From a phage, in the NCBI GenBank assembly GCA_032298335.1, contig GCA_032298335.1_4702.1: a stretch of DNA of 43,865 nucleotides; one strand, given 5' to 3'. Below are positions 3,128 to 41,228 of the stretch, piece after piece. Position 1 is the first letter of the stretch, and each line of letters begins with the position of its first letter. Made by a program: the position numbers and the translations under genes. The notes below the pieces were generated by a model. It did not search any database, was not told the origin of the DNA, and saw only the letters and a list, made by a program, of their open reading frames with translations.

Positions 3128-5755
3128 ATGCAAGACCTACACGCTATTCAACTTCAACTTGAAGAAGAAATGTTTAACGGCGGTATCCGTCGCTTTGAAG
3201 CGGACCAACAACGCCAGATTGCATCCGGTAATGAATCAGACACGGCATGGAATCGCCGCTTATTGTCCGAGTTAATCGCGCCAATGGCTGAAGGTATTCA
3301 GGCATACAAGGAAGAGTATGAAGGTAAAAGAGGCCGTGCACCGCGTGCATTAGCTTTCATTAACTGCGTAGAAAATGAAGTGGCAGCGTATATCACGATG
3401 AAAATCGTTATGGATATGCTGAACACGGATGTAACCTTGCAGGCTATAGCCATGAATGTAGCTGACCGCATTGAGGACCAAGTACGTTTTAGCAAGCTGG
3501 AAGGTCACGCCGCCAAATACTTTGAAAAAGTTAAGAAGTCACTTAAGGCAAGTAAGACTAAATCATATCGCCATGCGCACAACGTAGCGGTAGTGGCTGA
3601 GAAGTCAGTAGCTGACCGTGACGCTGATTTCTCTCGCTGGGAAGCGTGGCCTAAAGATACCTTGCTACAAATTGGGATGACCTTGCTTGAAATCTTAGAG
3701 AATAGCGTATTCTTCAACGGGCAACCTGTCTTCCTCCGCACCTTGCGCACTAATGGCGGAAAACATGGTGTTTACTACCTACAGACTAGTGAACACGTAG
3801 GTGAGTGGATAACTGCATTTAAAGAACATGTAGCGCAACTTAGTCCCGCCTATGCACCTTGCGTTATTCCTCCGCGTCCGTGGGTGTCACCCTTTAACGG
3901 TGGGTTTCATACTGAGAAAGTAGCAAGCCGTATTCGTCTGGTAAAAGGCAATCGTGAGCACGTCCGCAAGCTGACCAAAAAGCAAATGCCAGCGGTTTAC
4001 AAGGCTGTTAACGCTTTGCAGGTGACTAAGTGGCAGGTTAATAAAGAGGTTTTACAGGTTGTGGAGGACGTTATACGTCTAGACCTCGGCTATGGTGTAC
4101 CTTCCTTTAAACCACTCATCGACCGTGAGAACAAGCCAGCTAATCCGGTGCCGTTAGAGTTCCAGCACCTGCGAGGCCGTGAACTGAAAGAAATGCTTAC
4201 GCCGGAACAATGGCAAGCCTTTATCAACTGGAAAGGTGAATGTACTAAGCTGTACACCGCTGAAACTAAGCGCGGAAGCAAATCGGCGGCAACCGTTCAC
4301 ATGGTTGGTCAGGCCCGTAAATATAGCCAGTTCGACGCAATCTACTTCGTGTATGCACTGGACAGCCGCAGCCGTGTATACGCGCAATCTAGCACACTCT
4401 CACCGCAATCAAATGACTTGGGCAAGGCCTTGCTCCGTTTTACCGAAGGGCAGCGTCTTGATAGCGCTGAGGCGCTTAAGTGGTTTTTGGTGAACGGGGC
4501 TAATAACTGGGGTTGGGATAAGAAAACTTTTGACGTGCGCACTGCTAACGTGCTGGATAGTGAATTTCAAGACATGTGCCGCGACATTGCAGCGGATCCG
4601 CTGACCTTCACTCAATGGGTAAATGCCGACTCCCCTTACGGCTTCCTTGCATGGTGCTTTGAATATGCGCGTTATCTGGATGCACTGGATGAAGGCACGC
4701 AAGACCAATTCATGACGCACCTCCCAGTCCATCAAGATGGTAGTTGTTCTGGTATCCAGCACTACAGTGCTATGCTACGCGATGCAGTAGGTGCGAAAGC
4801 AGTAAACCTTAAGCCCTCTGACTCTCCTCAAGATATTTATGGTGCCGTTGCGCAGGTAGTAATTCAGAAGAATTATGCATACATGAATGCAGAGGGTGCG
4901 GAAACCTTCACTTCTGGCAGCGTGACTTTAACAGGTGCGGAACTGCGTAGTATGGCTAGTGCGTGGGATATGATAGGAATCACTCGCGGCCTGACCAAAA
5001 AGCCCGTAATGACACTACCTTATGGCAGCACACGTCTAACCTGCCGTGAGTCAGTGATTGATTATATCGTTGATTTAGAAGAAAAAGAGGCCCAACGGGC
5101 TATTGCGGAAGGGCGTACCGCCAATCCTGTACACCCTTTTGACAATGACCGTAAGGACAGCCTGACACCTAGCGCAGCTTATAACTATATGACAGCTTTA
5201 ATCTGGCCTTCTATTTCGGAAGTGGTTAAAGCTCCTATAGTGGCAATGAAAATGATTCGTCAGCTTGCACGTTTCGCAGCTAAAAGGAATGAAGGCTTAG
5301 AGTACACCTTGCCTACTGGCTTCATCTTGCAACAAAAGATAATGGCGACAGATATGCTCCGCGTATCTACTTGCTTGATGGGAGAAATCAAGATGAGTCT
5401 ACAGATTGAAACGGACGTAGTGGATGAAACGGCTATGATGGGCGCTGCTGCCCCTAACTTTGTGCACGGTCATGATGCCAGTCACCTTATCTTAACGGTC
5501 TGCGACCTTGTTGATAAAGGGATTACATCTATCGCAGTAATTCATGATTCTTTTGGCACTCATGCAGGTCGCACCGCAGACCTACGTGATAGTCTAAGGG
5601 CAGAAATGGTGAAGATGTATCAAGGCCGTAACGCTCTGCAAAGCCTGTTAGATGAGCATGAAGAACGCTGGTTAGTAGACACCGGAATCCAAGTGCCAAA
5701 GCAAGGAGAGTTTGACCTTAACGAAATCTTAGTATCTGACTATTGCTTCGCATAA
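3128..5755 (+). CDS. Single-subunit DNA-directed RNA polymerase, SP6-type
   Basis: 875 aa. Begins [32 protein letters not shown] and contains [33 protein letters not shown] and IHDSFGTHA, near-identical to SP6 RNA polymerase as recalled; T7 RNAP-family catalytic motifs present. Confidence 0.97.
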
Positions 5756-5763
5756 TATTAATA

Positions 5764-5795
5764 GGCCATTCCTTCGGGAGTGGCCTTTTCTTTTT
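5764..5795 (+). terminator. Intrinsic terminator after the RNA polymerase gene
   Basis: 9-bp stem GGCCATTCC / GGAGTGGCC (one G-U pair) with a TTCG tetraloop, followed by TTTTCTTTTT. Confidence 0.75.
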
Positions 5796-5829
5796 ACCTA
5801 CTACCGGTAACATTTCATTAACATAAAGT

Positions 5830-5845
5830 GTCTCACATGTGAGAC
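5830..5845. repeat. 16-bp perfect palindrome GTCTCACATGTGAGAC (copy 1)
   Basis: Exact self-complementary 16-mer immediately upstream of a promoter variant. Confidence 0.9.
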
Positions 5846-5847
5846 TT

Positions 5848-5868
5848 ATTTACCGGACACTATAGGAT
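5848..5868 (+). promoter_or_regulatory. Phage RNA polymerase promoter variant (ATTTACCGGACACTATAGGAT)
   Basis: Matches the window consensus ATTTACTGGACACTATAGAAG except at -11 and +3/+4. Confidence 0.6.
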
Positions 5869-5916
5869 AGCCGTCGGAGACGGGAAAGAAAGGGAAGATA
5901 AAGGATATAAAAGGAA

Positions 5917-5963
5917 GTAATAGGTATTAAAGGTTATATAGGTTATCTAGGAATACCTATTAC
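5917..5963. repeat. 12-bp perfect inverted repeat flanking a 23-bp AT-rich spacer
   Basis: GTAATAGGTATT at 5917-5928 and its reverse complement AATACCTATTAC at 5952-5963, inside an AT-rich non-coding stretch between two promoters. Confidence 0.8.
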
Positions 5964-6011
5964 CTTCTTCCTTCCTCTTATTACTACTTAGAGGAAGGGC
6001 AGATCTAGGTT

Positions 6012-6027
6012 GTCTCACATGTGAGAC
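6012..6027. repeat. 16-bp perfect palindrome GTCTCACATGTGAGAC (copy 2)
   Basis: Exact repeat of the palindrome at 5830, again directly upstream of a promoter variant. Confidence 0.9.
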
Positions 6028-6032
6028 TTCGT

Positions 6033-6053
6033 ATTTACCGGACAGTATAGATA
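6033..6053 (+). promoter_or_regulatory. Phage RNA polymerase promoter variant (ATTTACCGGACAGTATAGATA)
   Basis: Promoter-like sequence with C to G at -5 and a changed +3; upstream of the gp1.1-like and primase genes. Confidence 0.5.
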
Positions 6054-6079
6054 AGACTAACTTACTTTGGGATTTAACC

Positions 6080-6208
6080 ATGCGTAACTTTGAGAAGATG
6101 ACCCGTAAAGCTAACCGCTTTGACATGGAAGAAGGGCAGAAGAAAGGCAAGAAGCTGAATAAACCTGTCCGTGACCGTGCATCTAAACGCGCTGCGTGGG
6201 AGTTCTAA
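6080..6208 (+). CDS. Small basic protein, T7 gp1.1-like (42 aa)
   Basis: Begins MRNFEKM and ends WEF; lysine/arginine-rich; sits directly downstream of the RNA polymerase gene as T7 gene 1.1 does. Similarity is from memory. Confidence 0.6.
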   Translation: MRNFEKMTRKANRFDMEEGQKKGKKLNKPVRDRASKRAAWEF

Positions 6209-6211
6209 ATT

Positions 6212-8200
6212 ATGGCTATTATTCAGAATGTACCGTGTCCTGCCTGTCAAAAGAATGGACATGATATTACTGGCAACCATCTTATGATATTTGAGGATGG
6301 CGCTGGTTACTGTAACCGTGGTCACTTCCATGATAATGGGAAGCCTTATTACCATAAGCCAGAGGGTGGTATCGAGATAACCGAATTGCCTATTACTGGC
6401 AATATCAAATATACACCTTCTCAATTCAAAGAAATGGAGAAGGAAGGGAAGATAAGCGACCCTAAGCTACGCGCCATCGCACTTGGTGGTATGCGTATGA
6501 AAGACCGTTGGGAGGTTATGAATGAGCAAGAAAGGGCAGACCAAGAAGCAGAGTGGAAACTTGATGTTGAATGGTTCCTCACGCTTAAGCGTAAGAACCT
6601 TGTATCCCGTCACATTCGAGGTGACATCGCAGCAATGTACGATGTGCGCGTTGGACACGATGAAGAGGGAAGAGTCAACCGTCACTATTATCCACGATAT
6701 GAAAAGGGTGTGCTTGTTGGAGCAAAATGCCGGACGTTGCCGAAGGATTTTAAGTTCGGACACCTAGGTAAACTCTTTGGTATGCAAGATCTTTTCGGTA
6801 TGAATACTTTGTCTCACGTGTTAGACAAGGGGAGGCGAAAGGATTGCTTGCTTATTGTAGGCGGTGAACTTGATGCACTAGCAGCGCAGCAGATGCTCCT
6901 TGATTCTGCCAAGGGTACTAAGTGGGAAGGACAACCATATCATGTGTGGTCTGTCAACAAGGGCGAGTCTTGCCTTGAAGAGATAGTGCAGAACCGTGAG
7001 CATATCGCCCAATTCAAGAAGATTATATGGGGTTTTGATGGAGATGAGGTAGGGCAGAAGCAGAATCAGCAAGCGGCTCGCCTGTTTCCTGGCAAATCCT
7101 ATATCCTTGAATACCCCTCTGGTTGCAAAGATGCTAACAAGGCATTGATGGCTGGCAAGGCCAAAGAGTTTGTTGATGCATGGTTTAATGCCAAGTCATC
7201 TGATGAAGTCTTTGGTAGCCAGATTAAATCTATCGCATCTCAAAGGGATAAGCTCAAGGCTGCACGTCCAGAGCAAGGACTATCATGGCCTTGGCCTAAG
7301 CTGAACAAGGTAACGCTAGGTATTCGTAAGAACCAACTTATCATTGTAGGCGCAGGCTCTGGTGTAGGTAAGACTGAGTTCCTTCGTGAAGTAGTTAAGC
7401 ACCTCATTGAAGAACACGGTGAATCTGTAGGCATCATTTCTACAGAAGACCCGATGGTCAAGGTGTCCCGTGCTTTTATCGGCAAGTGGATTGATAAGCG
7501 TATTGAGTTACCGCCAACCAACGACCCTAAAGAAGACGGATACCGTGAGGTGTTCGACTACACCGAGGAAGAAGCTAACGCCGCCATTGATTATGTAGCT
7601 GATACAGGTAAGCTGTTTGTAGCTGACCTAGAGGGTGACTATTCGATGGAAAAGGTAGAGCAAACTTGCCTAGAGTTTGAGGCTATGGGCATTTCTAATA
7701 TCATCATTGATAACTTAACGGGGATTAAATTAGATGAGCGTGCTTTTGGTGGGAAGGTTGGTGCACTTGATGAATGCGTCAAGCGGATTGGTACTATCAA
7801 AGACCGACACCCGGTTACTATATTCCTTGTATCACACCTTACACGTCCTCCGGCAAACCGTACCCAACACGAAGAAGGTGGCGAAGTTATCCTTTCTGAC
7901 TTCCGAGGCTCAGGCGCTATCGGATTCTGGGCATCTTACGCCTTGGGGATTGAGCGTAATACAAGAGCTGAAACGCTTGACGAAAGGACTACCACGTACA
8001 TCTCTTGTGTCAAAGACCGCGACCAAGGAATATTTTCCGGTACTCGTATAATGCTTAAAGGTGATATTGCTACTGGTCGATTACGTGAACCAGAGCAAAG
8101 ATCTCGACCGTTTGATACTGGTGCTCCAAAAGAACAAACTGTACCAGAAGAAGTAGTGGATAAAGGAGGATTTATTGCTGACGAAGTTGAAGAGTTTTGA
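6212..8200 (+). CDS. Bifunctional DNA primase/helicase (T7 gp4-like)
   Basis: N-terminal zinc-ribbon CPACQ...CNRGHFH; Walker A GAGSGVGKTEF; helicase motifs IIIDNLTG and VSHLTRPPANRTQHEEGGEVILSDFRGSGAIG paralleling T7 gp4; acidic C-terminus ending EEF. Confidence 0.95.
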   Translation: MAIIQNVPCPACQKNGHDITGNHLMIFEDGAGYCNRGHFHDNGKPYYHKPEGGIEITELPITGNIKYTPSQFKEMEKEGKISDPKLRAIALGGMRMKDRWEVMNEQERADQEAEWKLDVEWFLTLKRKNLVSRHIRGDIAAMYDVRVGHDEEGRVNRHYYPRYEKGVLVGAKCRTLPKDFKFGHLGKLFGMQDLFGMNTLSHVLDKGRRKDCLLIVGGELDALAAQQMLLDSAKGTKWEGQPYHVWSVNKGESCLEEIVQNREHIAQFKKIIWGFDGDEVGQKQNQQAARLFPGKSYILEYPSGCKDANKALMAGKAKEFVDAWFNAKSSDEVFGSQIKSIASQRDKLKAARPEQGLSWPWPKLNKVTLGIRKNQLIIVGAGSGVGKTEFLREVVKHLIEEHGESVGIISTEDPMVKVSRAFIGKWIDKRIELPPTNDPKEDGYREVFDYTEEEANAAIDYVADTGKLFVADLEGDYSMEKVEQTCLEFEAMGISNIIIDNLTGIKLDERAFGGKVGALDECVKRIGTIKDRHPVTIFLVSHLTRPPANRTQHEEGGEVILSDFRGSGAIGFWASYALGIERNTRAETLDERTTTYISCVKDRDQGIFSGTRIMLKGDIATGRLREPEQRSRPFDTGAPKEQTVPEEVVDKGGFIADEVEEF

Positions 8201-8663
8201 GGCAGCAGGATATACCATCAAGGAGGATGGTACTATCCTTAACCCTAAAGGTGTAATACTTAAACCGAGCCAATCAGGAAGGAAATTAAAGTATTTATAT
8301 GTAAGTTGGAGACATCAAGGAAGAAGAGTAACAGAGCTTGTACACAGATTGGTTGCTAAGAAGTACATACCCAACCCACACAGTTTACCAGAAGTTCATC
8401 ATAAAGACTTTAACCCTCTTAATTGTCATAAAGACAATCTTGAATGGACAGATGGTAAGACTAATTGTGAGTATAGTTATGCAAGGGTAGAAGCTGCACT
8501 TGCACGTCATGCTACTTTATTGTCACCTGATGGCATTAAGTACGACATATTTAATGTTCGTAAATTCTGCCGCGAACATGGCCTCAATCCACCTAGTGTA
8601 TTTGAGGTGCTTAGTGGTAAACGGAAGTCACATAAAGGGTGGACTATTTACCGGACACTATAG
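8175..8663 (+). CDS. HNH homing endonuclease
   Basis: HRLVA...NP...PEVHHKDFNPLNCHKDNLEWTDGKTN HNH motif; AT-rich relative to neighbours; overlaps the helicase 3' end; paralog of the gene at 43214. Confidence 0.85.
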   Translation: MLTKLKSFEAAGYTIKEDGTILNPKGVILKPSQSGRKLKYLYVSWRHQGRRVTELVHRLVAKKYIPNPHSLPEVHHKDFNPLNCHKDNLEWTDGKTNCEYSYARVEAALARHATLLSPDGIKYDIFNVRKFCREHGLNPPSVFEVLSGKRKSHKGWTIYRTL

Positions 8664-8666: not shown

Positions 8667-8776
8667 ACATTATTCGTAAGCAAGGGTTGAAGGGTCTTCA
8701 CATCTTAAATGGTGAAGAATTACTGTACCTACCTATCGTTACTGAAGAAACCTACGTGAATATCTAAGAGTTAATC

Positions 8777-8995
8777 ATGACTAAAGTATTAATTTATATG
8801 CGTGGACCTCATAAATGCTATGCAGTTGTAGCACCAAATGGTGTTAAGCCCTATAGTACTTCAAAAGGATTGGCATTAATAGGTGCTAGTAGTAGTGCAA
8901 GTTTCCAAATGGAACTTTTTGGTCATTGGACTGAATGGCAATTCCGTGAGGATTTTAAAGTCATTGGCAGCTTCATGGTGAAACATGCAGAATAA
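8777..8995 (+). CDS. Hypothetical protein (72 aa)
   Basis: ORF with no recognisable motif. Confidence 0.5.
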   Translation: MTKVLIYMRGPHKCYAVVAPNGVKPYSTSKGLALIGASSSASFQMELFGHWTEWQFREDFKVIGSFMVKHAE

Positions 8996-9170: not shown

Positions 9171-9188
9171 TGTCTCACACGTGAGACA
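9171..9188. repeat. Palindrome variant TGTCTCACACGTGAGACA (copy 3)
   Basis: 8-bp arms identical to the 16-mer palindrome with an altered central dinucleotide; followed by a T-rich stretch. Confidence 0.8.
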
Positions 9189-9462: not shown

Positions 9463-9516
9463 CACCTAATTCTTTATTAGGACTTGGTTATAGGGCTAAA
9501 TACTTTGGAGCAATCT

Positions 9517-12063
9517 ATGAAATCAATTGATTGGAAGAAGGAAGCGGAAGGGCGCATCCTAGTTATGGACGCCGAGGCGAAAGGTCTACTTGATGCTATA
9601 CGCTATGGTCATCGTGAAGACGTGCATATCATCTGCTGTATGGACCTGTTGACTACAGAGGAGTTTCTCTTCTTCGACCCGTATGAGATGCGTGACCCTG
9701 AAGCAAGAGAACGCCTGAAGGAATGGGAAGGTCATCAAGATGGTGACTTGGTTGATGGTGTTAACTTCCTGAAGCACTGTGAGGCTATTGTGTCGCAGAA
9801 CTTCCTAGGGTATGACGGTCTTCTCTTTGAGAAAGCATTCCCTGATATTTGGAAAGGCTTTAACTATACCGAGAAGCGCGGTAAGGGCAGACTCCGTGCT
9901 GACCTGTGTCCGGTGCGAGTCATGGATACGCTGGTGATGAGTCGCCTGTTAAACCCCGATAGACGCCTTCCTCCGCAAGCATATGCCAAAGGTATGGGTA
10001 ACGTCGCCCCTCACTCAATTGAGGCGCACGGCATCCGTATAGGTCGCTATAAACCGGAGAACGAGGACTGGTCTAAACTAACTGACCACATGGTTCACCG
10101 TGTACGTGAGGACGTGGCGATTGGTCGTGACTTGTTCCTCTGGCTCTTTAACGGGGAATGGATGGAGCACAAACGCCGTGGCGTGAATAAACGCACGGGC
10201 CTAGGCATTGAGACAGCCTTCCACATGGAGTCCATTGTGGCGCTGGAGATGAGCCGTCAGGCCGAGCGCGGGTTCCGTCTGGACATCGACAAGGCTTTGG
10301 CCCGATGCGAAGAATTGGACGCTAAGATTGATGAGACAGTCGCAGCGTTCCGCCCTCACATGCCTATGCGTATCAAGTCTAAACCTTTTAAACCGGAAGA
10401 AAAGAATGAAGTATGCCAACGCGCAAATGAGTATGGAGCTAGCAACAATATACCTACTGTCCTTGACCCCTCACACTTTCTTCATGCCGAGAGACGAGGA
10501 GATCGCAAGACAGTATGGAGTGTCACTACTAAGTCTGGTGATTGGTCGGCTAGTGTCAAGAAAGACTTTCCTCACCTTAGAGGAAACCGTAATGACACGC
10601 CAAGCATCAAGTGGATTGGCGCTTACTCGCCTGTTACTTTCGAAGAGATTCCCTTGGGTAACAGGGATGCAGTTAAGCAAGTGCTCTATGAGTATGGATG
10701 GAAAGGTGTTGAATTTAACGATACCGAGCAAGCTCATCTCGATGAGCACGGAGTGTTACCAAAACCTTGGAGTGGTAAGATAAATGAAAAGTCCCTCACT
10801 TTATGGCAAGAAAGAGCCGCACGTGAAGGTAAAACAGCCCCTGATTGGTGCTTGGGTATCGCTGCATGGTACATACTCGTATCCCGTCGTGGTCAGATAC
10901 TCAACCGTGGTGACGTTGAAGCCTTCAACGAGAAGGGAACGTGGCCCTCGCAGGCTGGTGTACGAAAGTGTCGCGGCCTTGTACCTGTAGCATTCAACAA
11001 GGAGCTAGGAATCAATGCGCAGCAATACTACGAGAGGTACGGATGTTGGCCTACGTCTGACAAAGATGACGGAGAGTGGCGTGTTCCAGCTGTTGCTATT
11101 AGTATTGGCACTTCTACGTTCCGTATGCGTCATCGTAACGTGGTTAATATTCCTGCCCGTGGCTTGTATCCTTTACGTGATTTATTCATAGCAGGGAAAG
11201 GCAAGCTAATCCTTGGTTGTGACGGTGCAGGTCTTGAACTGCGTGTCCTGTCTCACTTCATGAATGACCCTGAGTACCAAGAGATTGTACTGCACGGTGA
11301 TATTCATACGCATAACCAGATGAAGGCTGGTCTTCCTAAGCGTGATATGGCGAAGACGTTTATATACGCCTTCCTCTATGGTTCTGGTATAGCCAACCTT
11401 GCAGCAGTCTGCGGTGTTACTGAGGAAGAAATGAAGGAAGTTGTGGCAAGATTCGAGATTGAACTACCGTCTCTTGCACGTCTTCGTGAGAATGTTATCG
11501 CACAAGGTAACAAGTTTGGCTACCTGCAAGCACTTGATGGGCATTGGGGTCGCATCCGCATGTCTGGTGGTGAACTTAAAGAGCACACGATGCTTAACGT
11601 ATTACTCCAGATGACTGGCTCTTTGTGTATGAAATATGCATTAGTCAAGGCATTTGCAGTAATGCGCAAGGAAGGTGTAGCTTTGGATGCTATGGGAAAT
11701 CCTTGTGGTGTGGCTAACGTGCATGATGAAATCCAGATGGAAGTTCCTGAAGAGGAGGTCTTGTATCTTAACTACGACCTACCTTTCACCTTAGATGGGT
11801 TCGAAACAGAGAAGGCTGCTGTGAAAGCAGTTTTCGATGCAGAGGAGAAACGTGTTCATGTGGATTCTGAAGGACGTATGTGGTCTGCTGCAAACCTAGT
11901 TAGCGTTGATGCTGATGCTGGTGTATTGCATTGCCAGCGCCGTTATCACCGTGCAGGTCATATCATTGCCGACGCCATGACTTGGGCAGGGCAGTATCTG
12001 AAGATGCGTTGCCCGATGGCAGGAGAATATAAGATTGGCGCAAGCTGGAAGGAAACACACTGA
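9517..12063 (+). CDS. DNA polymerase, family A (T7 gp5-like)
   Basis: Motifs DGAGLELRVLSHFM, GDIHTHNQ and AKTFIYAFLYGSG match T7 DNA polymerase motifs A/B; ATG at 9517 with a ribosome-binding site (the ORF track begins at an upstream TTG at 9484). Confidence 0.95.
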   Translation: MKSIDWKKEAEGRILVMDAEAKGLLDAIRYGHREDVHIICCMDLLTTEEFLFFDPYEMRDPEARERLKEWEGHQDGDLVDGVNFLKHCEAIVSQNFLGYDGLLFEKAFPDIWKGFNYTEKRGKGRLRADLCPVRVMDTLVMSRLLNPDRRLPPQAYAKGMGNVAPHSIEAHGIRIGRYKPENEDWSKLTDHMVHRVREDVAIGRDLFLWLFNGEWMEHKRRGVNKRTGLGIETAFHMESIVALEMSRQAERGFRLDIDKALARCEELDAKIDETVAAFRPHMPMRIKSKPFKPEEKNEVCQRANEYGASNNIPTVLDPSHFLHAERRGDRKTVWSVTTKSGDWSASVKKDFPHLRGNRNDTPSIKWIGAYSPVTFEEIPLGNRDAVKQVLYEYGWKGVEFNDTEQAHLDEHGVLPKPWSGKINEKSLTLWQERAAREGKTAPDWCLGIAAWYILVSRRGQILNRGDVEAFNEKGTWPSQAGVRKCRGLVPVAFNKELGINAQQYYERYGCWPTSDKDDGEWRVPAVAISIGTSTFRMRHRNVVNIPARGLYPLRDLFIAGKGKLILGCDGAGLELRVLSHFMNDPEYQEIVLHGDIHTHNQMKAGLPKRDMAKTFIYAFLYGSGIANLAAVCGVTEEEMKEVVARFEIELPSLARLRENVIAQGNKFGYLQALDGHWGRIRMSGGELKEHTMLNVLLQMTGSLCMKYALVKAFAVMRKEGVALDAMGNPCGVANVHDEIQMEVPEEEVLYLNYDLPFTLDGFETEKAAVKAVFDAEEKRVHVDSEGRMWSAANLVSVDADAGVLHCQRRYHRAGHIIADAMTWAGQYLKMRCPMAGEYKIGASWKETH

Positions 12064-12345: not shown

Positions 12346-12366
12346 ATTTACTGGACACTATAGAAG
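12346..12366 (+). promoter_or_regulatory. Phage RNA polymerase promoter (ATTTACTGGACACTATAGAAG)
   Basis: Exact match to the consensus defined by the other copies in this window. Confidence 0.85.
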
Positions 12367-12432
12367 GAAAGCCTAGACAATCTAGGTTTATAAGGTAGTA
12401 TAGGTAATTAAGTAAATATAGGAGATATAAAC

Positions 12433-12810
12433 ATGTCTATGGTAACTACTCTGGTATTTGTAGCTCAATACTTTCGTGGTCTGGCTAATAAGTTCAAGTC
12501 CAAGGCTATCAAAGCTATTGAGTCTCGCATCGAGGCAGTACAGGCAGAGCAAGTTAAAGTTGAAGAACATCGTAGTTCTAAAATGATTGACCGCCATAAC
12601 CGCTACTATGCATCTCGTGATGACCTTAATGCACGCCAAGTCAAAGAGGTTGAAGAGATGCTGGCACGTCACCAGCAAGAGCGCGACAGTCTGAAAGCTG
12701 AATTTGAAGAGAACAAGGCATCCATCGCCCTTGTACACCAATCTGCATCTGACAGTCTGAAGAAAGAGATTGTTATGCTTGAAATCGAACTGGACAACCT
12801 GACCAAATAA
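12433..12810 (+). CDS. Hypothetical coiled-coil protein (125 aa)
   Basis: AGGAG ribosome-binding site; charged heptad-like sequence. Confidence 0.6.
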   Translation: MSMVTTLVFVAQYFRGLANKFKSKAIKAIESRIEAVQAEQVKVEEHRSSKMIDRHNRYYASRDDLNARQVKEVEEMLARHQQERDSLKAEFEENKASIALVHQSASDSLKKEIVMLEIELDNLTK

Positions 12811-14312: not shown

Positions 14313-14328
14313 GTCTCACATGTGAGAC
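14313..14328. repeat. 16-bp perfect palindrome GTCTCACATGTGAGAC (copy 4)
   Basis: Exact copy, 16 nt upstream of the promoter at 14344. Confidence 0.9.
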
Positions 14329-18258: not shown

Positions 18259-19202
18259 ACATCTTCCAATTCCTAGGTCTTCCAGAAGACCACCGCAATC
18301 ATCCATTCATGCTGGTGAAGCATCGCGGTGAAGTTCCTGAGAAGAAACTTACTTTTCCATGTTATGCACAGGTGAAACGAGATGGAATATTCAGTGCTGT
18401 TGTGGTGCGCAATGATGGTGCTGTTGCCATCTTTGGTCGTACTGGTAAGAAGCTCGCAAATGTTGAATCCTTGGAAAAGACATTTAGTGTATTTCCTGTC
18501 GGGTTGTATCTTGGTGAGTTGCAATCTATGGCTGTTGATGTTTATCTTGAAGCTCTGTCAGGAGTGGTAAACCCTAATCGTACAGAGCCACTTGACTTCA
18601 TAGGCCAGCAGATTAAAGACAACCTGTATATCGACTTCTTCGATATGTTAACTATTAAGGCATTCCATGATGGATTCACTGATGTTTCTTATCTCAAACG
18701 TTACGATGCTTTACATCGCCGCATCGGCGCTCATCTTAGCGGGTACAACGCTATCCTTCCTATTACTCCTTGCCATAATGAGCGAGAAGTTGAAGCGTTT
18801 GCGCAAGAGCAGATAGACGCAGGCCGAGAAGGTGCGGTATTTAAACTTGACGTGGAGTACGAAAGTGGGCACAAAGGCTATCGTCAAACGAAGATCGTTC
18901 GTATGGTATCTTACGACCTCACCTGTATTGGGTGGGAGGAAGGAAAAGGTAAGTATAAAGGTAAAGTAGCTAACCTCATTTTCAAATGGAAAGGAGGCAA
19001 GTCTATTAAGGCTATGCTGGGCCGTGGCTGGTCACATGAGGATGCAGCCCAAATGTATCACGATATTAAGCACGGTGGCGAACTGAACGTCATTGGGAAG
19101 ATCTTCGCTGTCAAGGCGTTGCAGGAATCTAGCAAGGGAGTCCTGAGACTTCCCAAGGTTTCTGAATTACGCCACGATAAGGAGGTTCCTGATGTTTATT
19201 GA
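18255..19202 (+). CDS. ATP-dependent DNA ligase
   Basis: KxDG adenylation motif (AQVKRDGIFS) and a later EGAVFK block analogous to T7 ligase EGLIVK; strong ribosome-binding site. Confidence 0.85.
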   Translation: MNIFQFLGLPEDHRNHPFMLVKHRGEVPEKKLTFPCYAQVKRDGIFSAVVVRNDGAVAIFGRTGKKLANVESLEKTFSVFPVGLYLGELQSMAVDVYLEALSGVVNPNRTEPLDFIGQQIKDNLYIDFFDMLTIKAFHDGFTDVSYLKRYDALHRRIGAHLSGYNAILPITPCHNEREVEAFAQEQIDAGREGAVFKLDVEYESGHKGYRQTKIVRMVSYDLTCIGWEEGKGKYKGKVANLIFKWKGGKSIKAMLGRGWSHEDAAQMYHDIKHGGELNVIGKIFAVKALQESSKGVLRLPKVSELRHDKEVPDVY

Positions 19203-30965: not shown

Positions 30966-30981
30966 GTCTCACATGTGAGAC
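30966..30981. repeat. 16-bp perfect palindrome GTCTCACATGTGAGAC (copy 5)
   Basis: Exact copy between the two large internal virion protein genes, followed by GGTCTTTA. Confidence 0.9.
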
Positions 30982-31012
30982 AGGTCTTTATGATAGGCAC
31001 TATGGAGGAACT

Positions 31013-35376: not shown

Positions 35377-35659
35377 ACATGCAGCTACAGAGGATGAGGT
35401 TGGCATTCTGCATGGTGCTATTACCAAAATCTTCAATAAGAAAGCACAGGCAATACTGGACACTATAGAAGAAGACCCTGATGCAGCATTACATTTAGTG
35501 TCTGGTAAGGATATTGGTGCGATGTGTAAGTGGGTTCTTGATAACGGCATTACCGCCACACCTGCTGCACAGCAGGAAGAGTCCAAGTTATCTAAGCGCC
35601 TCAAGGCTATCCGAGAGGCATCCAGTGGTAAGATAATTCAATTCACTAAGGAGGATTGA
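35360..35659 (+). CDS. Terminase small subunit (gp18-like)
   Basis: 99 aa ORF immediately upstream of, and coupled to, the large terminase gene; GTG start with an AGGAGAG ribosome-binding site. Confidence 0.6.
   Translation: MSVHNKHAATEDEVGILHGAITKIFNKKAQAILDTIEEDPDAALHLVSGKDIGAMCKWVLDNGITATPAAQQEESKLSKRLKAIREASSGKIIQFTKED
35451..35471 (+). promoter_or_regulatory. Internal phage promoter inside the small terminase gene
   Basis: CAATACTGGACACTATAGAAG: the 18-nt core is identical to the consensus, the upstream 3 nt differ. Confidence 0.55.
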
Positions 35660-37557
35660 TGGCTAAGGCAAGAGAATCACAAGCGGAGGCTCTTGCCAGA
35701 TGGGAGATGCTACAGGAGTTACAGCAGACCTTTCCTTTCACAGCGGAAGGTTTGCTTCTCTTTGCAGATACAGTTATTCATAACTTAATTGCAGGCAACC
35801 CTCATCTGATTCGTATGCAGGCGGATATCTTGAAGTTCCTATTTTACGGACACAAGTACCGCCTCATCGAAGCGCCTCGTGGTATCGCTAAGACAACACT
35901 ATCAGCAATCTATACGGTATTCCGTATTATTCATGAACCGCATAAGCGTATCATGGTTGTGTCCCAAAACGCCAAGCGAGCAGAGGAAATCGCAGGTTGG
36001 GTAGTTAAAATCTTCCGTGGCTTAGACTTTCTTGAGTTTATGCTGCCGGATATCTACGCTGGGGACCGTGCATCCGTTAAGGCGTTTGAGATTCATTACA
36101 CCCTACGTGGTAGTGATAAGTCTCCTTCTGTATCCTGTTACTCAATCCAAGCAAGTATGCAGGGTGCTCGTGCTGATATTATTCTAGCGGATGACGTAGA
36201 GTCGATGCAGAATGCTCGTACGGCAGCGGGCCGTGCCTTGCTTGAGGAACTGACTAAGGAGTTTGAATCTATCAACCAGTTTGGGGATATCATTTACCTT
36301 GGTACACCTCAGAACGTAAACTCTATCTACAACAACCTACCTGCTCGTGGTTACTCTGTTCGTATCTGGACTGCGCGTTACCCTTCAGTAGAGCAAGAGC
36401 AATGTTATGGCGACTTCCTTGCACCTATGATTGTGCAGAATATGAAGGACAACCCAGCACTGCGCTCAGGGTACGGGTTGGATGGTAATAGTGGTGCACC
36501 TTGTGCCCCTGAAATGTATGATGATGAAGTCCTGATTGAGAAGGAAATCTCTCAGGGTGCTGCTAAGTTCCAGCTTCAGTTCATGCTTAACACTCGCATG
36601 ATGGATGCTGACAGATACCCATTACGCCTGAACAATCTAATCTTCACCTCGTTTGGTACAGAGGAAGTCCCTGTGATGCCTACGTGGAGTAATGATTCCA
36701 TAAACATCATTGGTGATGCACCTAAGTATGGTAACAAGCCTACGGATTTCATGTACAGACCTGTAGCTCGCCCATACGAATGGGGTACTGTCTCCCGCAA
36801 GATTATGTATATTGACCCTGCGGGTGGCGGTAAGAATGGGGATGAGACGGGTGTGGCTATCGTATTCCTGCACGGCACATTCATTTACGTGTATCAGTGC
36901 TTCGGTGTGCCGGGTGGATACCGCGAATCGTCCCTGAATCGCATTGTGCAGGCCGCAAAGCAGGCGGGTGTTAAAGAGGTATTCATTGAGAAGAACTTTG
37001 GTCATGGCGCGTTTGAGGCGGTAATTAAGCCGTACTTTGAACGAGAGTGGCCTGTAACGCTGGAAGAGGATTACGCCACCGGACAGAAAGAGTTGCGTAT
37101 CATTGAGACGCTGGAGCCGCTCATGGCAGCCCATAGGCTTATCTTCAATGCAGAGATGGTGAAGTCAGACTTTGAGTCGGTACAGCACTATCCGCTTGAA
37201 CTACGCATGTCCTACAGTCTTTTCAATCAAATGTCGAACATAACGATTGAGAAGAACAGCCTCCGGCACGATGACCGCCTAGACGCCCTGTATGGCGCTA
37301 TACGGCAATTAACTTCTCAGATAGACTATGACGAGGTTACACGGATTAATCGCCTCAGAGCGCAGGAGATGCGAGATTACATCCATGCTATGAACACACC
37401 TCATCTACGCAGGGCAATGCTATATGGGGATTACGGTACTGAGCGAAGAGTGACCAACACTTCCGTAGCGATGCAGCAGCGAGTTTACGGGCAGAACTAC
37501 CGAAATAAATCGGCAAGCAGAAATACACTTTCTGCAAGGATTTCAAGGACTTATTAA
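35659..37557 (+). CDS. Terminase large subunit (gp19-like)
   Basis: 632 aa; ATPase N-terminal half and nuclease C-terminal half expected from size and position; ATG overlaps the small-subunit stop. Confidence 0.9.
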   Translation: MAKARESQAEALARWEMLQELQQTFPFTAEGLLLFADTVIHNLIAGNPHLIRMQADILKFLFYGHKYRLIEAPRGIAKTTLSAIYTVFRIIHEPHKRIMVVSQNAKRAEEIAGWVVKIFRGLDFLEFMLPDIYAGDRASVKAFEIHYTLRGSDKSPSVSCYSIQASMQGARADIILADDVESMQNARTAAGRALLEELTKEFESINQFGDIIYLGTPQNVNSIYNNLPARGYSVRIWTARYPSVEQEQCYGDFLAPMIVQNMKDNPALRSGYGLDGNSGAPCAPEMYDDEVLIEKEISQGAAKFQLQFMLNTRMMDADRYPLRLNNLIFTSFGTEEVPVMPTWSNDSINIIGDAPKYGNKPTDFMYRPVARPYEWGTVSRKIMYIDPAGGGKNGDETGVAIVFLHGTFIYVYQCFGVPGGYRESSLNRIVQAAKQAGVKEVFIEKNFGHGAFEAVIKPYFEREWPVTLEEDYATGQKELRIIETLEPLMAAHRLIFNAEMVKSDFESVQHYPLELRMSYSLFNQMSNITIEKNSLRHDDRLDALYGAIRQLTSQIDYDEVTRINRLRAQEMRDYIHAMNTPHLRRAMLYGDYGTERRVTNTSVAMQQRVYGQNYRNKSASRNTLSARISRTY

Positions 37558-37576
37558 TTACTGGACACTATAGAAG
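37556..37576 (+). promoter_or_regulatory. Phage RNA polymerase promoter after the terminase gene
   Basis: AATTACTGGACACTATAGAAG; overlaps the terminase stop. Confidence 0.85.
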
Positions 37577-37649
37577 GAAGGCCCAGATAATAAGAGAAAT
37601 AATAGGTAATATATAGGTTAACCTAGGTTATATAGGTATGCCTTAGTAT

Positions 37650-37669
37650 AGGTGTACTCCTGTACACCT
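37650..37669. repeat. Hairpin-forming inverted repeat AGGTGTAC-TCCT-GTACACCT
   Basis: 8-bp perfect stem with a 4-nt loop in the AT-rich leader after the promoter, followed by a tandem TACCTTAC x2. Confidence 0.7.
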
Positions 37670-37721
37670 TATTCATTACTACCTTACTACCTTACTATAT
37701 TTACATAATAGGAGAGAGACA

Positions 37722-39248: not shown

Positions 39249-39329
39249 AGATAAGATAGCGCCGTTCTTTTGAGCGGCCTATTACTAGCCAATCTTCATA
39301 GGGAGGGTTGGAAAGTAATAGGAGATAGT

Positions 39330-41228
39330 ATGGCTAAATTAACCAAACCTAATACTGAAGGAATCTTGCATAAAGGACAATCTTTGTATGAGTACCTTGA
39401 TGCGAGAGTTTTAACATCAAAGCCGTTTGGTGCTGCAGGTGACGCCACTACTGATGATACGGAGGTTATAGCTGCTTCATTAAACTCTCAGAAAGCTGTC
39501 ACAGTCTCAGACGGTGTATTCTCTAGCTCTGGTATTAATAGTAATTACTGTAACTTAGACGGTAGGGGTAGTGGCGTGCTAAGTCACCGTTCCAGTACAG
39601 GTAACTACTTAGTATTTAACAATCTACGTGCAGGTCGCTTAAGTAATATTACGGTAGAAAGTAATAAGGCGACTGATACAACTCAGGGACAGCAGGTATC
39701 TCTTGCTGGTGGAAGTGATGTTACTGTAAGTGACGTTAACTTCTCAAACGTTAAAGGTACTGGTTTCAGTTTAATCGCATACCCTAATGATGCGCCACCT
39801 GATGGACTTATGATTAAAGGCATTCGAGGTCGCTATTCCGGCTATGCTACTAATAAGGCAGCTGGATGCGTACTTGCTGACTCCTCAGTTAACTCCCTCA
39901 TAGATAACGTCATTGCTAAGAACTACCCTCAGTTTGGAGCAGTAGAGTTGAAAGGTACAGCCAGTTACAACATAGTCAGTAATGTTATAGGGGCAGATTG
40001 CCAGCATGTAACTTACAACGGCACTGAAGGGCCAATAGCTCCTTCTAATAACCTTATCAATGGGGTAGTGGCTAATAATCCTAAGTATGCAGCGGTTGTT
40101 GCAGGCAAAGGTAGTACGAACTTAATATCAGATGTGCTCGTAGATTACTCAACCTCTGATGCTAGGCAGGCTCATGGTGTTACAGTAGAGGGGTCTGATA
40201 ACGTCATAAATAATGTGCTTATGTCAGGATGTGATGGTACTAACTCTTTAGGACAAAGGCAGACTGCTACAATTGCACGCTTTATAGGTACAGCTAATAA
40301 CAACTATGCGTCTGTATTTCCTAGCTACAGTGCTACAGGTGTTATTACTTTCGAATCCGGCTCTACCCGTAACTTCGTAGAGGTAAAGCACCCTGGCAGG
40401 AGAAACGACCTTCTCAGTTCTGCTAGCACTATTGACGGTGCAGCTACTATTGACGGCACTAATAATAGTAACGTAGTGCACGCACCTGCCTTAGGGCAGT
40501 ACATAGGTAGTATGTCAGGTAGGTTCGAATGGCGGATTAAGTCCATGTCACTCCCTTCAGGCGTTCTTACTTCTAATGATAAGTACAGAATGCTTGGGGA
40601 TGGTGCTGTATCATTAGCTTTAGGTGGGGGTACTTCTTCTCAAGTTCGCCTATTTACTTCTGATGGTACTTCTCGTACAGTGTCCCTCACCAAAGGTAAC
40701 GTGCGTCTTTCTACCAGTAGCACAGGCTATTTGCAGTTAGGTGCTGATGCAATGACCCCAGATAGTACTGGTACATACGCATTAGGTTCCGCCAGTCGAG
40801 CATGGTCTGGAGGTTTTACTCAAGCAGCATTCACTGTTACATCAGATGCTCGGTGTAAAACAGAACCTCTTACTATCTCAGATGCCTTACTGGATGCTTG
40901 GTCTGAAGTTGACTTTGTGCAGTTTCAGTATTTGGATCGTGTTGAGGAGAAGGGTGCAGACTCAGCTAGATGGCACTTCGGTATCATCGCTCAGCGAGCT
41001 AAGGAGGCTTTCGAACGCCACGGTATAGATGCACATCGCTATGGCTTCTTGTGCTTCGACAGTTGGGATGATGTATACGAGGAAGATGCCAATGGCTCTC
41101 GTAAACTGATTACACCAGCAGGTTCACGCTACGGTATTCGTTACGAGGAAGTACTGATATTAGAGGCTGCGTTGATGCGGAGGACTATCAAGCGTATGCA
41201 GGAAGCACTAGCTTCCCTGCCTAAGTGA
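39330..41228 (+). CDS. Tailspike 1 with C-terminal intramolecular chaperone domain
   Basis: 632 aa; beta-helix-like repeats rich in Gly/Ser/Thr/Asn; the C-terminal roughly 130 aa (TSDAR ... GIIAQRAKEAF ... RYGIRYEEVLILEAALM) resemble the self-cleaving chaperone domain of endosialidase and K5-lyase tailspikes. Confidence 0.85.
   Translation: MAKLTKPNTEGILHKGQSLYEYLDARVLTSKPFGAAGDATTDDTEVIAASLNSQKAVTVSDGVFSSSGINSNYCNLDGRGSGVLSHRSSTGNYLVFNNLRAGRLSNITVESNKATDTTQGQQVSLAGGSDVTVSDVNFSNVKGTGFSLIAYPNDAPPDGLMIKGIRGRYSGYATNKAAGCVLADSSVNSLIDNVIAKNYPQFGAVELKGTASYNIVSNVIGADCQHVTYNGTEGPIAPSNNLINGVVANNPKYAAVVAGKGSTNLISDVLVDYSTSDARQAHGVTVEGSDNVINNVLMSGCDGTNSLGQRQTATIARFIGTANNNYASVFPSYSATGVITFESGSTRNFVEVKHPGRRNDLLSSASTIDGAATIDGTNNSNVVHAPALGQYIGSMSGRFEWRIKSMSLPSGVLTSNDKYRMLGDGAVSLALGGGTSSQVRLFTSDGTSRTVSLTKGNVRLSTSSTGYLQLGADAMTPDSTGTYALGSASRAWSGGFTQAAFTVTSDARCKTEPLTISDALLDAWSEVDFVQFQYLDRVEEKGADSARWHFGIIAQRAKEAFERHGIDAHRYGFLCFDSWDDVYEEDANGSRKLITPAGSRYGIRYEEVLILEAALMRRTIKRMQEALASLPK

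Follow-up and report, generated by a model that had tools for sequence, protein, structure and literature searches.

In phage T7, two tandem promoters, phi1.1A (5848) and phi1.1B (5923), lie between gene 1 and gene 1.1. They are the primary origins of replication, while phiOR and phi6.5 are secondary ones, and the primary origin itself is dispensable (PMC8373140). T7 gene 1.1, at 6007–6135, encodes 42 aa. The spacer between the two promoters holds the RNase III site R1.1, which Dunn and Studier reportedly placed there in 1983, and the R1.1 stem GGUCAUUCGCAAGAGUGGCC is visible in this spacer. The literature that could be searched yielded no replication data or origin mapping for SP6/K1-5-type phages; according to a secondary source (PMC4837284), Dobbins et al. 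(2004) reported a bidirectional replication origin of SP6 near gene 14, the DNA polymerase gene.

The window analyzed here, the whole stretch of 43,865 nt, is a near-complete Vectrevirus genome (a K1-5/K1E-like coliphage of the SP6 supergroup). A gap at 5756–6079 separates its RNA polymerase gene from a homologue of gene 1.1, and the primase/helicase gene comes next. The gap contains, in this order, a host-type terminator, a 16-bp palindrome, promoter P1, a 5′ stem-loop, seven AGG units, a long imperfect hairpin, a second palindrome and promoter P2. The features of the locus are as follows.

3128–5755, plus strand: single-subunit RNA polymerase gene, orthologue of T7 gene 1, left flank (Pfam RNA_pol, E=9e-90; RPOL_N, E=2e-31)
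5763–5795, plus strand: Rho-independent (host-type) terminator at the end of the early region; 10-bp stem with 6 GC pairs, GGCCATTCC-TTCG-GGAGTGGCC, then TTTTCTTTTT
5796–5829, plus strand: conserved spacer containing GTAACATTTCATTAACA; 4 of 34 sites variable among 11 Vectrevirus sequences
5830–5845, no strand: 16-bp palindrome before P1, exact copy of GTCTCACATGTGAGAC
5848–5870, plus strand: promoter P1, class-II-like variant, ATTTACCGGACACTATAG at 5848–5865
5871–5883, plus strand: predicted stem-loop at the 5′ end of the P1 transcript (MFE fold), CCGUC-GGA-GACGG
5884–5951, plus strand: purine-rich array of seven (A/T)(A/T)AGG(A/T) units with a spacing of 9–11 nt, from AGG positions and TRF
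5911–5969, plus strand: hairpin A, long and imperfect, with 18-nt arms and a 12-bp perfect inverted repeat, from MFE folds
5970–5998, plus strand: hairpin B, CCUUCCUCU / AGAGGAAGG with an 11-nt loop, from MFE and centroid folds
6012–6027, no strand: 16-bp palindrome before P2, exact GTCTCACATGTGAGAC, invariant in 11 Vectrevirus sequences
6033–6055, plus strand: promoter P2, more divergent (CAGTATAG), ATTTACCGGACAGTATAG at 6033–6050
6080–6208, plus strand: gene 1.1 homologue of 42 aa, as in T7, right flank (Pfam PF08200 Phage_1_1, E=8.2e-16)
6212–8200, plus strand: DNA primase/helicase gene (Pfam DnaB_C and Toprim_2; annotated as primase/helicase in relatives)

The counterparts of the 3128–5755 gene are annotated as RNA polymerase in K1-5, K1E and SP6. 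The terminator occupies the same place in all relatives and is annotated as such in relatives, and the spacer behind it is mostly common to SP6 and Klebsiella phages too. A sigma-70 promoter scan of the intergenic region, including this spacer, gave no match. For this region, neither regulatory features nor an origin are annotated in the GenBank records of SP6 and K1-5. The gap is best explained as the early/middle gene boundary of a K1-5-like phage and as the positional counterpart of the T7 gene 1/gene 1.1 control region. We consider it plausible, at a probability of about 0.5, that the same gap serves as a T7-type transcription-activated origin, and this DNA probably also shapes mRNA.

An origin of the T7 type is expected to have phage promoters that read into an AT-rich, easily melted segment directly behind them, and a primary origin is expected between the RNA polymerase gene and gene 1.1. 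The gap lies at this location and has two phage promoters, P1 and P2. Easily melted DNA follows P1 directly; it does not follow P2, which has a leader of only 30 nt before the start of gene 1.1. Promoters at 5848–5868 and 6033–6053 had been proposed by the sequence-only reading as divergent from consensus, and we agree: both belong to a family with 11 members in the window (0.02 expected), and both deviate from its majority form, ATTTACTGGACACTATAGAAG. They share a T-to-C change at position 7, which is found elsewhere only in the promoter at 8646, and the initially transcribed bases are atypical in both. P2 additionally carries CAGTATAG where the majority form has CACTATAG. By analogy with the SP6 promoter, the P1 transcript is predicted to start at G5865; the predicted start of P2 is 6050, 185 nt downstream. 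A second, atypical promoter follows P1 in all relatives, and the P1–P2 spacing is 129–188 nt across the lineages that keep the layout of the module. The P1 leader contains no open reading frame. The middle pair of its 5′ stem-loop (+7 to +19) is G-C, A-U, U-A or C-G, depending on the lineage. Since a stem-loop beginning at +7 keeps its pairing via four different base pairs across lineages, the P1 start appears to be used.

All Molineuxvirinae lineages sampled conserve the layout: terminator, palindrome, P1, stem-loop, AGG array, pyrimidine arm and P2 recur in Vectrevirus, Zindervirus, the Klebsiella group, Acadevirus, Tuodvirus and two metagenomic lineages, and Gajwadongvirus has an analogous module whose repeats and palindromes differ in sequence. 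Among Vectrevirus relatives, the elements from the first palindrome through P2 differ from the window sequence by a mean of 0.013–0.054 per site; in the same comparison, third codon positions of the RNA polymerase and primase genes differ by 0.14–0.23 per site. Sequence comparison thus indicates that the module is under purifying selection within Vectrevirus, changing several-fold more slowly than neighboring third codon positions. HNH genes of relatives are inserted just 3′ of P2, not within the module.

Each promoter is preceded by the 16-bp palindrome, as had been noted before: exact copies end 2 nt upstream of P1 and 5 nt upstream of P2. The window holds 7 matches to GTCTCACATGTGAGAC at up to 3 mismatches (0.22 expected), a count reached in none of 100 shuffles. 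The palindrome before P1 is present in every Molineuxvirinae lineage sampled, with a lineage-specific sequence. The one before P2 is present in Vectrevirus, Zindervirus and the Klebsiella group, and absent from Acadevirus, Tuodvirus and the lineages L026 and L028. Full-text literature searches for the palindrome sequences returned nothing relevant.

A terminator consensus scan flagged both copies, which are followed by the tails TTATTTAC and TTCGTATTT, respectively. P1 could therefore be read as the promoter of a discrete, non-coding small RNA of about 165 nt that ends at the second palindrome hairpin and its U-rich tail (TTCGTATTT), and whose Shine-Dalgarno-like AGG units work in trans, where they might titrate ribosomes or an RNA-binding protein. 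The lack of an open reading frame in the leader suits such an RNA, and its AGG/GGA repeats resemble motifs of known protein-sponging RNAs. However, the putative terminator stem has just 6 bp with 3 GC pairs and its T-run is interrupted, and the four lineages without the second palindrome keep the rest of the module. The same AGG arrays also occur in ordinary mRNA leaders, at 12346 and 37556. An Rfam search of 5600–6300 in E-value mode gave noise-level hairpin matches only, the best of miRNA type at E=0.21 and far under gathering scores. We regard this reading as very improbable.

The palindromes, or the phased AGG units, may instead bind a protein encoded by the phage or the host, for instance an initiator, helicase loader or transcription regulator, in which case the element would differ from the protein-free T7 origin. 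The palindrome is an element of 6–9 copies at orthologous positions in K1-5-like phages, SP6 and Pm5460, and within one genome all copies have the sequence typical of the lineage, namely GTCTCAC..GTGAGAC, GTC(T/C)AAC..GTTGGAC with N2, or the same half-sites around N3. That the copies change in concert suggests recognition of a specific sequence. In several copies the half-sites are mixed, which would disrupt a hairpin; seven AGG units recur at 9–11 nt with the same phasing in all lineages despite sequence drift; and conservation at the sequence level is strong across the module. Against protein binding, the intercistronic palindromes form the tip of a stem of about 14 bp whose genus-variable flanks contain U-G pairs, as expected of an RNA hairpin, and the palindrome center in Pm5460 is 3 nt rather than 2, a change more easily accommodated by a loop than by a dimer site. 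In addition, the pre-P2 palindrome is missing in the four lineages mentioned above, the AGG units are shorter and more degenerate than classical iterons of 17–22 bp, and no candidate binding protein was identified. We think that a factor-dependent element of this kind is unlikely. An initiator-dependent, iteron-type origin was rejected as such: the repeats are degenerate AGG units of 9–10 nt, not 17–22 bp, and the neighbors encode gp1.1 and the primase/helicase, with no initiator-like gene. The promoters followed by AGG arrays are precisely the three whose downstream DNA is least stable, and it is conceivable, albeit doubtful, that the palindromes (6–9 orthologous sites) and the AGG arrays, phased at about 9.6 nt, together constitute a recognition system for a phage-encoded factor of the SP6 supergroup. 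Its task would be to license or coordinate replication primed by transcription, or to switch between the early and middle phases. We know of no description of such a control layer in T7.

The segment between the promoters had been described as about 130 bp of AT-rich DNA. Its AT-richness is clear, with a GC content of 0.30 at 5884–5983 against a genome mean of 0.45 (sd 0.054, 100-nt windows), tied among the lowest few genome-wide. It is not simply AT-rich, being first purine-rich and then pyrimidine-rich, with an AGG every 9–11 nt (at 5891, 5902, 5912, 5922, 5931, 5940 and 5949). TRF reports arrays of period 10 and period 9 in 5884–5951. About 77–82% of the first 60–80 nt of the inter-promoter segment are purines, and 5864–5923 has the highest purine content of any 60 nt in the genome (82%). 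A purine-rich P1 leader would favor a stable RNA:DNA hybrid. T7-ori plasmids need inactivation of RNase H (PMC8373140).

The 12-bp perfect inverted repeat at 5917–5928 / 5952–5963 exists exactly as first described and extends to 18-nt arms with 89% complementarity (5911–5928 / 5952–5969). A perfect inverted repeat of at least 12 bp appeared in 2 of 1000 dinucleotide shuffles of 5866–6011. Together with the palindrome (0/100) and promoter (11 against 0.02) statistics, this rules out a chance origin of the features. Hairpin A, which contains the repeat, is the core of the low-stability DNA and a candidate RNase III or stability hairpin. In the window it has an 18-bp stem with one mismatch plus 4–6 apical pairs, and in relatives a quasi-continuous helix of 22–27 bp. 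Fold z-scores are modest, from −1.6 to −2.4. Since plus-strand RNA, minus-strand RNA and DNA parameters gave similar z-scores (−2.0 to −2.4), strand-wise folding does not separate RNA-level from DNA-level structure.

The hairpin makes it possible that the region controls expression alone. The promoters would then simply initiate transcription of the middle (DNA-metabolism) genes and ease the takeover by the phage polymerase, and the hairpin would be an RNase III or mRNA-stabilizing element resembling R1.1, with no special role in replication. We regard this reading as possible but less likely than an origin. The hairpin sits between two tandem promoters after the polymerase gene, as R1.1 does in T7, and both are interrupted helices of about two turns with ACCUUCUUCC in a pyrimidine-rich 3′ arm. 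In each lineage the transcribed leader folds into a quasi-continuous helix of 22–27 bp, which fits an RNase III substrate because E. coli RNase III substrates typically have about two helical turns (PMC1540722); in T7, RNase III processes the middle and late transcripts (PMC4858673). Other transcripts of the phage are also led by hairpins, and a similar leader with AGG repeats and a hairpin follows the promoter at 37556. The 3′ arm and T7 R1.1 share the 10-mer ACCTTCTTCC, a length reached in 32 of 5000 shuffles (about 0.006). However, this match is confined to Vectrevirus and missing in other genera, and overall sequence homology to T7 R1.1 is not detectable. The hairpin here also exceeds R1.1 in length, has a far higher AT content and lies within a repeat array, and early host transcripts should end at the terminator, so that it would act only on P1 transcripts. 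The long hairpin is found in every lineage with shifted registers. RNAalifold on 15 P1-to-P2 segments recovered the 5′ stem-loop alone, with the long hairpin out of register and without covariation, and the few changes within genera mostly break pairs. Among Vectrevirus relatives, the mean difference of hairpin A from the window sequence is 0.02 per site, a conservation tighter than a purely structural helix needs. Control of expression alone also leaves unexplained why a promoter with a non-coding leader is kept just upstream of a second promoter in every lineage, and why the lowest duplex stability of the whole genome falls in this leader. Moreover, both roles coexist in T7, so an R1.1-like element is compatible with origin function.

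The duplex-stability scan ranked 5894–5993, directly downstream of P1, as the least stable of all 100-bp windows in the genome; the equivalent segment ranks fourth in SP6 and second in Pm5460. Of the five least stable windows, four begin at most 40 nt past a phage promoter start. In T7, the one genome used as a benchmark, the four least stable segments by the same scan follow phiOL, phi6.5, phi1.1B and phiOR. Two other promoters of the window have AT-rich leaders with AGG repeats.

12346–12473, plus strand: promoter and leader after the DNA polymerase gene (9484–12063); AGG at 12384, 12393, 12402 and 12420; third least stable 100-bp window
37556–37720, plus strand: promoter and leader directly after the large terminase gene (35656–37557); second least stable window

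The element at 12346 is possibly an alternative or secondary origin, and its type provides the least stable window in SP6. The element at 37556 is the positional analogue of T7 phiOR, which follows gene 19. An almost equally unstable segment also follows the promoter at 8646. Since the promoters at 12346, 37556 and 8646 precede near-equivalent segments, the word "primary", which the sequence-only reading had used, is not inferable from sequence. The reported SP6 origin near gene 14 counts against a primary origin at the RNA polymerase gene because it lies nearer to the 12346-type element. Since AT-rich leaders with AGG repeats also occur at 12346 and 37556, the feature could serve leaders in general, for instance in translation or processing. 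Our ranking of candidate origins places the P1 leader first, followed by the segments at 37.6, 12.4 and 8.7 kb.

Cumulative GC, AT and purine skews over the whole genome rise monotonically, with no origin-like turning point. Past about 6 kb the slope of the skew approximately doubles, at the point where transcription switches to the phage polymerase, and this change is not attributable to replication.

A T7-type origin is also expected to carry a primase recognition site on the displaced strand, in or beside its AT-rich DNA. For SP6, the primase reportedly uses 5′-GCA-3′ (Tseng and coworkers, 2000). The only plus-strand GCA of the segment is at 5999–6001, within GGGCAGA, a motif that Vectrevirus and Zindervirus conserve, unlike the Klebsiella or Proteus phages; a trinucleotide is too short for its presence to be meaningful.

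With the gap as a T7-type origin, host transcription would halt at the terminator at 5763–5795, and the newly made phage RNA polymerase would fire from the tandem, slightly off-consensus P1 (+1 at 5865) and P2 (+1 at 6050). P2 by itself would be enough for the expression of gene 1.1 and the primase/helicase gene. P1 would yield a non-coding leader of about 170 nt with the covarying 5′ stem-loop, the purine-rich AGG array and a hairpin of about 20 bp. The leader DNA may have two roles, as in the equivalent T7 region. As DNA, it would be the easiest melting site of the genome, where P1 transcripts may become primers for the phage DNA polymerase; as the first unit of promoter plus AT-rich DNA to enter the cell and be transcribed, it would probably be the first origin used. 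As RNA, its hairpin may be a processing or stability element of the R1.1 kind. Because the T7 primary origin is dispensable, deletion of the segment may give little phenotype.

Phages of the SP6/K1-5 type are widely used in therapy against K1 E. coli, Salmonella and Klebsiella, and as sources of enzyme tools (SP6 and K1E RNA polymerases). A defined origin would aid genome engineering and rebooting, the construction of phage-dependent replicating plasmids, as done with the T7 origin, and studies of early-infection kinetics. The palindrome family and the phased AGG arrays are also brought to attention as two conserved cis elements.

The earlier claim that the locus has the same architecture as the T7 primary origin is borne out by its position, its orthologous flanking genes and the instability downstream of P1; the placement of the AT-rich DNA differs. 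Compared with T7, whose origin function is proven while that of the present locus is predicted, the gap is flanked by the same genes in the same order and has two tandem class-II-type promoters, minimally stable AT-rich DNA directly after a promoter with a top rank in instability genome-wide, and a primase/helicase gene nearby. However, T7 has its AT-rich DNA in an 84-nt leader (GC 0.29) after both promoters, and its 75-nt inter-promoter spacer has a GC content of 0.48, while the AT-rich stretch here is the inter-promoter spacer itself. A host terminator precedes the promoters here, whereas the T7 early terminator TE lies about 1.7 kb further right, and the palindromes and phased AGG units are additional to the T7 arrangement. 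At the left genome end, no phage promoter was recognized in the window, while Pm5460 has one beside its left-end palindrome. As with T7 phiOL, phiOR and phi6.5, promoters with an AT-rich segment behind them occur at several places in the genome; the elements here share the AGG-repeat motif, whereas those of T7 share CTTAAG/CTTTAAG-like motifs.

Across 5700-6250, the sequence shares 99.5% identity with Vectrevirus LI10P5 and approximately 96% with phage K1-5, and there are 82 matching phage records. Because of this near identity, the window is classified as a near-complete genome of a K1-5/K1E-like phage in the SP6 supergroup (Autographiviridae, Molineuxvirinae). The feature occupies a 324-nt gap between the RNA polymerase gene and a 42-aa ORF with the adjoining primase/helicase gene.

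Elements of the gap and flanking genes (window coordinates)
3128-5755, single-subunit RNA polymerase gene
5763-5795, strong rho-independent terminator
5796-5829, conserved spacer
5830-5845, palindrome 1, an exact copy of GTCTCACATGTGAGAC
5848-5870, promoter P1; predicted +1 is G5865, from comparison with the SP6 promoter
5864-5923, purine-richest 60 nt of the genome (82% purine)
5871-5883, 5' stem-loop CCGUC-GGA-GACGG, a predicted fold of the P1 transcript
5891-5949, AGG array; AGG at 5891, 5902, 5912, 5922, 5931, 5940 and 5949 (spacing 9-11 nt)
5911-5969, hairpin A, which holds the 12-bp inverted repeat
5970-5998, hairpin B
6012-6027, palindrome 2, an exact copy of GTCTCACATGTGAGAC
6033-6055, promoter P2; predicted +1 is 6050
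6050-6079, 30-nt leader up to the gene 1.1 start codon
6080-6208, gene 1.1 homologue, the 42-aa ORF (Pfam Phage_1_1, T7 gp1.1 family, E=8e-16)
6212-8200, primase/helicase gene

The sequence-only reading had proposed 5830-6060 as a primary replication origin with T7-like architecture, and all the features that it listed are present. The palindrome precedes each promoter. The family that includes both promoters (5848-5865 and 6033-6050) has 11 members where 0.02 would be expected, and both depart from the consensus as described: each has C for T at position 7 and unusual initially transcribed bases. P2 additionally has CAGTATAG in place of CACTATAG. The CCGG variant of P1 and P2 occurs elsewhere only in the promoter at 8646. 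The 12-bp inverted repeat is perfect and can be lengthened to arms of 18 nt with 89% complementarity; when the segment was shuffled with dinucleotides preserved, 2 of 1000 shuffles gave a perfect repeat of that length. The segment is AT-rich (GC 0.30 at 5884-5983 versus a genome mean of 0.45). Within the early region, before the polymerase gene, is another promoter-like site, ATTTAGCTGACACTATAAGAG (1764-1786), with A, not G, as its predicted start; it might serve phage polymerase takeover ahead of the early terminator.

The order of the elements is kept in K1-5, K1E, VEc3, SP6, UAB_Phi78 and Klebsiella K1-ULIP33-like phages, and also in the Proteus phages Pm5460 and PM116, Lelliottia phage phD2B and two further IMG/VR lineages, with P1 and P2 129-188 nt apart. 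Among 11 Vectrevirus sequences, the elements from palindrome 1 through P2 differ from the window by a mean of 0.00-0.05 per site, and third codon positions differ by 0.14 (polymerase) and 0.23 (primase) per site. In the stem-loop of the P1 transcript, pairing is kept while the middle pair is G-C, A-U, U-A or C-G. This covariation is good evidence that P1 would fire at its predicted position and that its RNA matters.

VEc3, UAB_Phi78 and PM116 carry HNH endonuclease genes between P2 and gene 1.1, and none is inside the module; the interval looks like an insertion hot-spot that spares the P1-P2 module. In the relatives' sequences, these homing-endonuclease genes of three genera are located at 678-1094 (L004, VEc3), 722-1132 (L013, UAB_Phi78) and 786-1199 (L012, PM116). 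A further relative, L020, has an extra segment in the region, known by size alone, which is similar to that of the HNH inserts. Gajwadongvirus (PP99, ECBP5 and JSF38) has additional genes after the polymerase gene, and a module of terminator, palindromes, promoter, phased repeat, pyrimidine arm and promoter is placed directly upstream of the small and primase genes, with palindrome and repeat sequences unlike those of the window. This non-coding module of approximately 430 nt spans 1724-2167 in L010 (PP99), 948-1374 in L011 (ECBP5) and 1948-2374 in L014 (JSF38); its palindrome is GTACTAGTTGGCTAGTAC, in two copies, and its phased repeat is TAAGCT-like.

We calculated nearest-neighbour duplex stability in sliding 100-bp windows, with T7 as the benchmark. 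The four least stable windows of T7 are 384-483 (after phiOL), 18559-18658 (phi6.5), 5905-6004 (phi1.1B) and 39250-39349 (phiOR), each an AT-rich region linked to a promoter; the known primary and secondary origins are among them. T7 replication starts at the primary origins phi1.1A/B and can also use secondary ones, phiOR and phi6.5 among them, and every T7 origin requires a T7 promoter (PMC8373140).

Least stable 100-bp windows of the phage genome, in rank order
5894-5993, rank 1 (least stable), 29 nt past the P1 start
37587-37686, rank 2, after the promoter at 37556
12374-12473, rank 3, after the 12346 promoter, which follows the DNA polymerase gene
8700-8799, rank 4, after the promoter at 8646
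267-366, rank 5, left end, around a palindrome copy

This ranking supports the P1 leader as a T7-type origin, and it also shows that the leader is one among several near-equivalent candidates. The leader ranks fourth in SP6 and second in Pm5460. According to a secondary source (PMC4837284), Dobbins et al. located an SP6 origin close to gene 14, which encodes DNA polymerase; this would fit the 12.4-kb-type element, the least stable window of SP6. The cumulative GC skew of the genome rises monotonically and is uninformative on the origin. By the criterion that works on T7, the region is, on sequence, the strongest candidate of the genome for a transcription-activated origin, and we put the chance that it functions as a replication origin at about even (roughly 0.5). 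That it would be the "primary" one is our inference from timing, since no other promoter-plus-AT-rich unit enters the cell and is transcribed earlier.

AGG units at 9-11 nt phasing are also present downstream of two further promoters, 12346 and 37556, whose downstream segments rank third and second in instability. The stretches 12363-12440 and 37573-37720, extremely AT-rich and carrying AGG/TAGGT units spaced 9-11 nt, are candidate alternative origins. In the P1 leader, the hairpin does not by itself account for the array, because the AGG units are too many to be paired by the pyrimidine arm.

The P1 leader of every lineage is predicted to fold into a long hairpin, 18-27 bp with interruptions. 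Its length comes to about two turns of helix, as is typical of substrates of E. coli RNase III (PMC1540722), and T7 middle and late transcripts undergo RNase III processing (PMC4858673). The hairpin may be an RNase III-type processing element, a reading to which we give modest weight: its length matches that of the substrates, but the fold z-scores are only -1.6 to -2.4, the leader folds equally well with either strand and with DNA parameters, RNAalifold did not recover the long hairpin, no Rfam family matches the leader, and in sequence it shares with the T7 RNase III site R1.1 only a 10-mer, which is restricted to Vectrevirus. Processing and origin function would not be exclusive, because T7 has both in one intergenic region.

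The palindrome GTCTCACATGTGAGAC occurs seven times in the window at up to 3 mismatches, against 0.22 expected.

Palindrome copies
Window: 291-306, 5830-5845, 6012-6027, 6811-6826, 9172-9187, 14313-14328, 30966-30981
SP6 (L095): 493, 6093, 6264, 7071, 8547, 9383, 14255, 17752, 30569
Pm5460 (L099): 562, 6615, 9159, 10234, 15021, 31563

The element recurs at orthologous genome positions in three genera: near the left end, upstream of P1 and of P2, ahead of the DNA polymerase gene, ahead of the promoter near 14.3 kb and between two internal-virion-protein genes. A copy inside the primase/helicase coding sequence is found in the window and SP6 only. All copies of a genome share one lineage-specific sequence (GTCTCAC-N2-GTGAGAC, GTC(T/C)AAC-N2-GTTGGAC or GTCCAAC-N3-GTTGGAC), which suggests that the palindrome is recognised sequence-specifically. 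However, the intercistronic copies form the tip of a stem of approximately 14 bp whose flanks vary from genus to genus and contain U-G pairs. This points to an RNA hairpin, in conflict with sequence recognition. We found no mention of the palindrome in the searchable literature. Directly 3' of the copy at 30966, tttatgataggcactatggagg (30982-31005) looks like a phage promoter that is weak or has decayed, and is nearer the Gajwadongvirus-type promoter core. A 30-nt block, TCCTAGCTCTGTATCTATTGCTTTTCCTTA (261-290), adjoins the left-end copy on its left and is identical in SP6 (463-492), despite an identity to SP6 of only ~73% in the studied region. Further left, at 17-150, approximately 11 tightly packed short CTTAG(T/G) repeats recall the short repeat arrays beside the T7 terminal repeat. 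The palindrome family and the AGG arrays are two conserved, undescribed cis elements.

The region is certainly an orthologue of the origin-bearing control region of T7, where phi1.1A (5848) and phi1.1B (5923) lie between gene 1 (end 5822) and gene 1.1 (6007-6135). The sequence-only reading is upheld in part; the positional homology is real, but the internal arrangement is not that of T7. The inter-promoter spacer of T7 has a GC content of 0.48 and is established as the location of R1.1 (Dunn and Studier 1983), the upper stem of which was seen in our fold of this spacer. The AT-rich stretch of T7 (84 nt, GC 0.29) follows phi1.1B, whereas in the window phage it is the spacer between the promoters, and the distance from P2 to the gene is almost nil. 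Elsewhere in the genome, the promoter at 37556 abuts the stop codon of the large terminase gene, like phiOR in T7.
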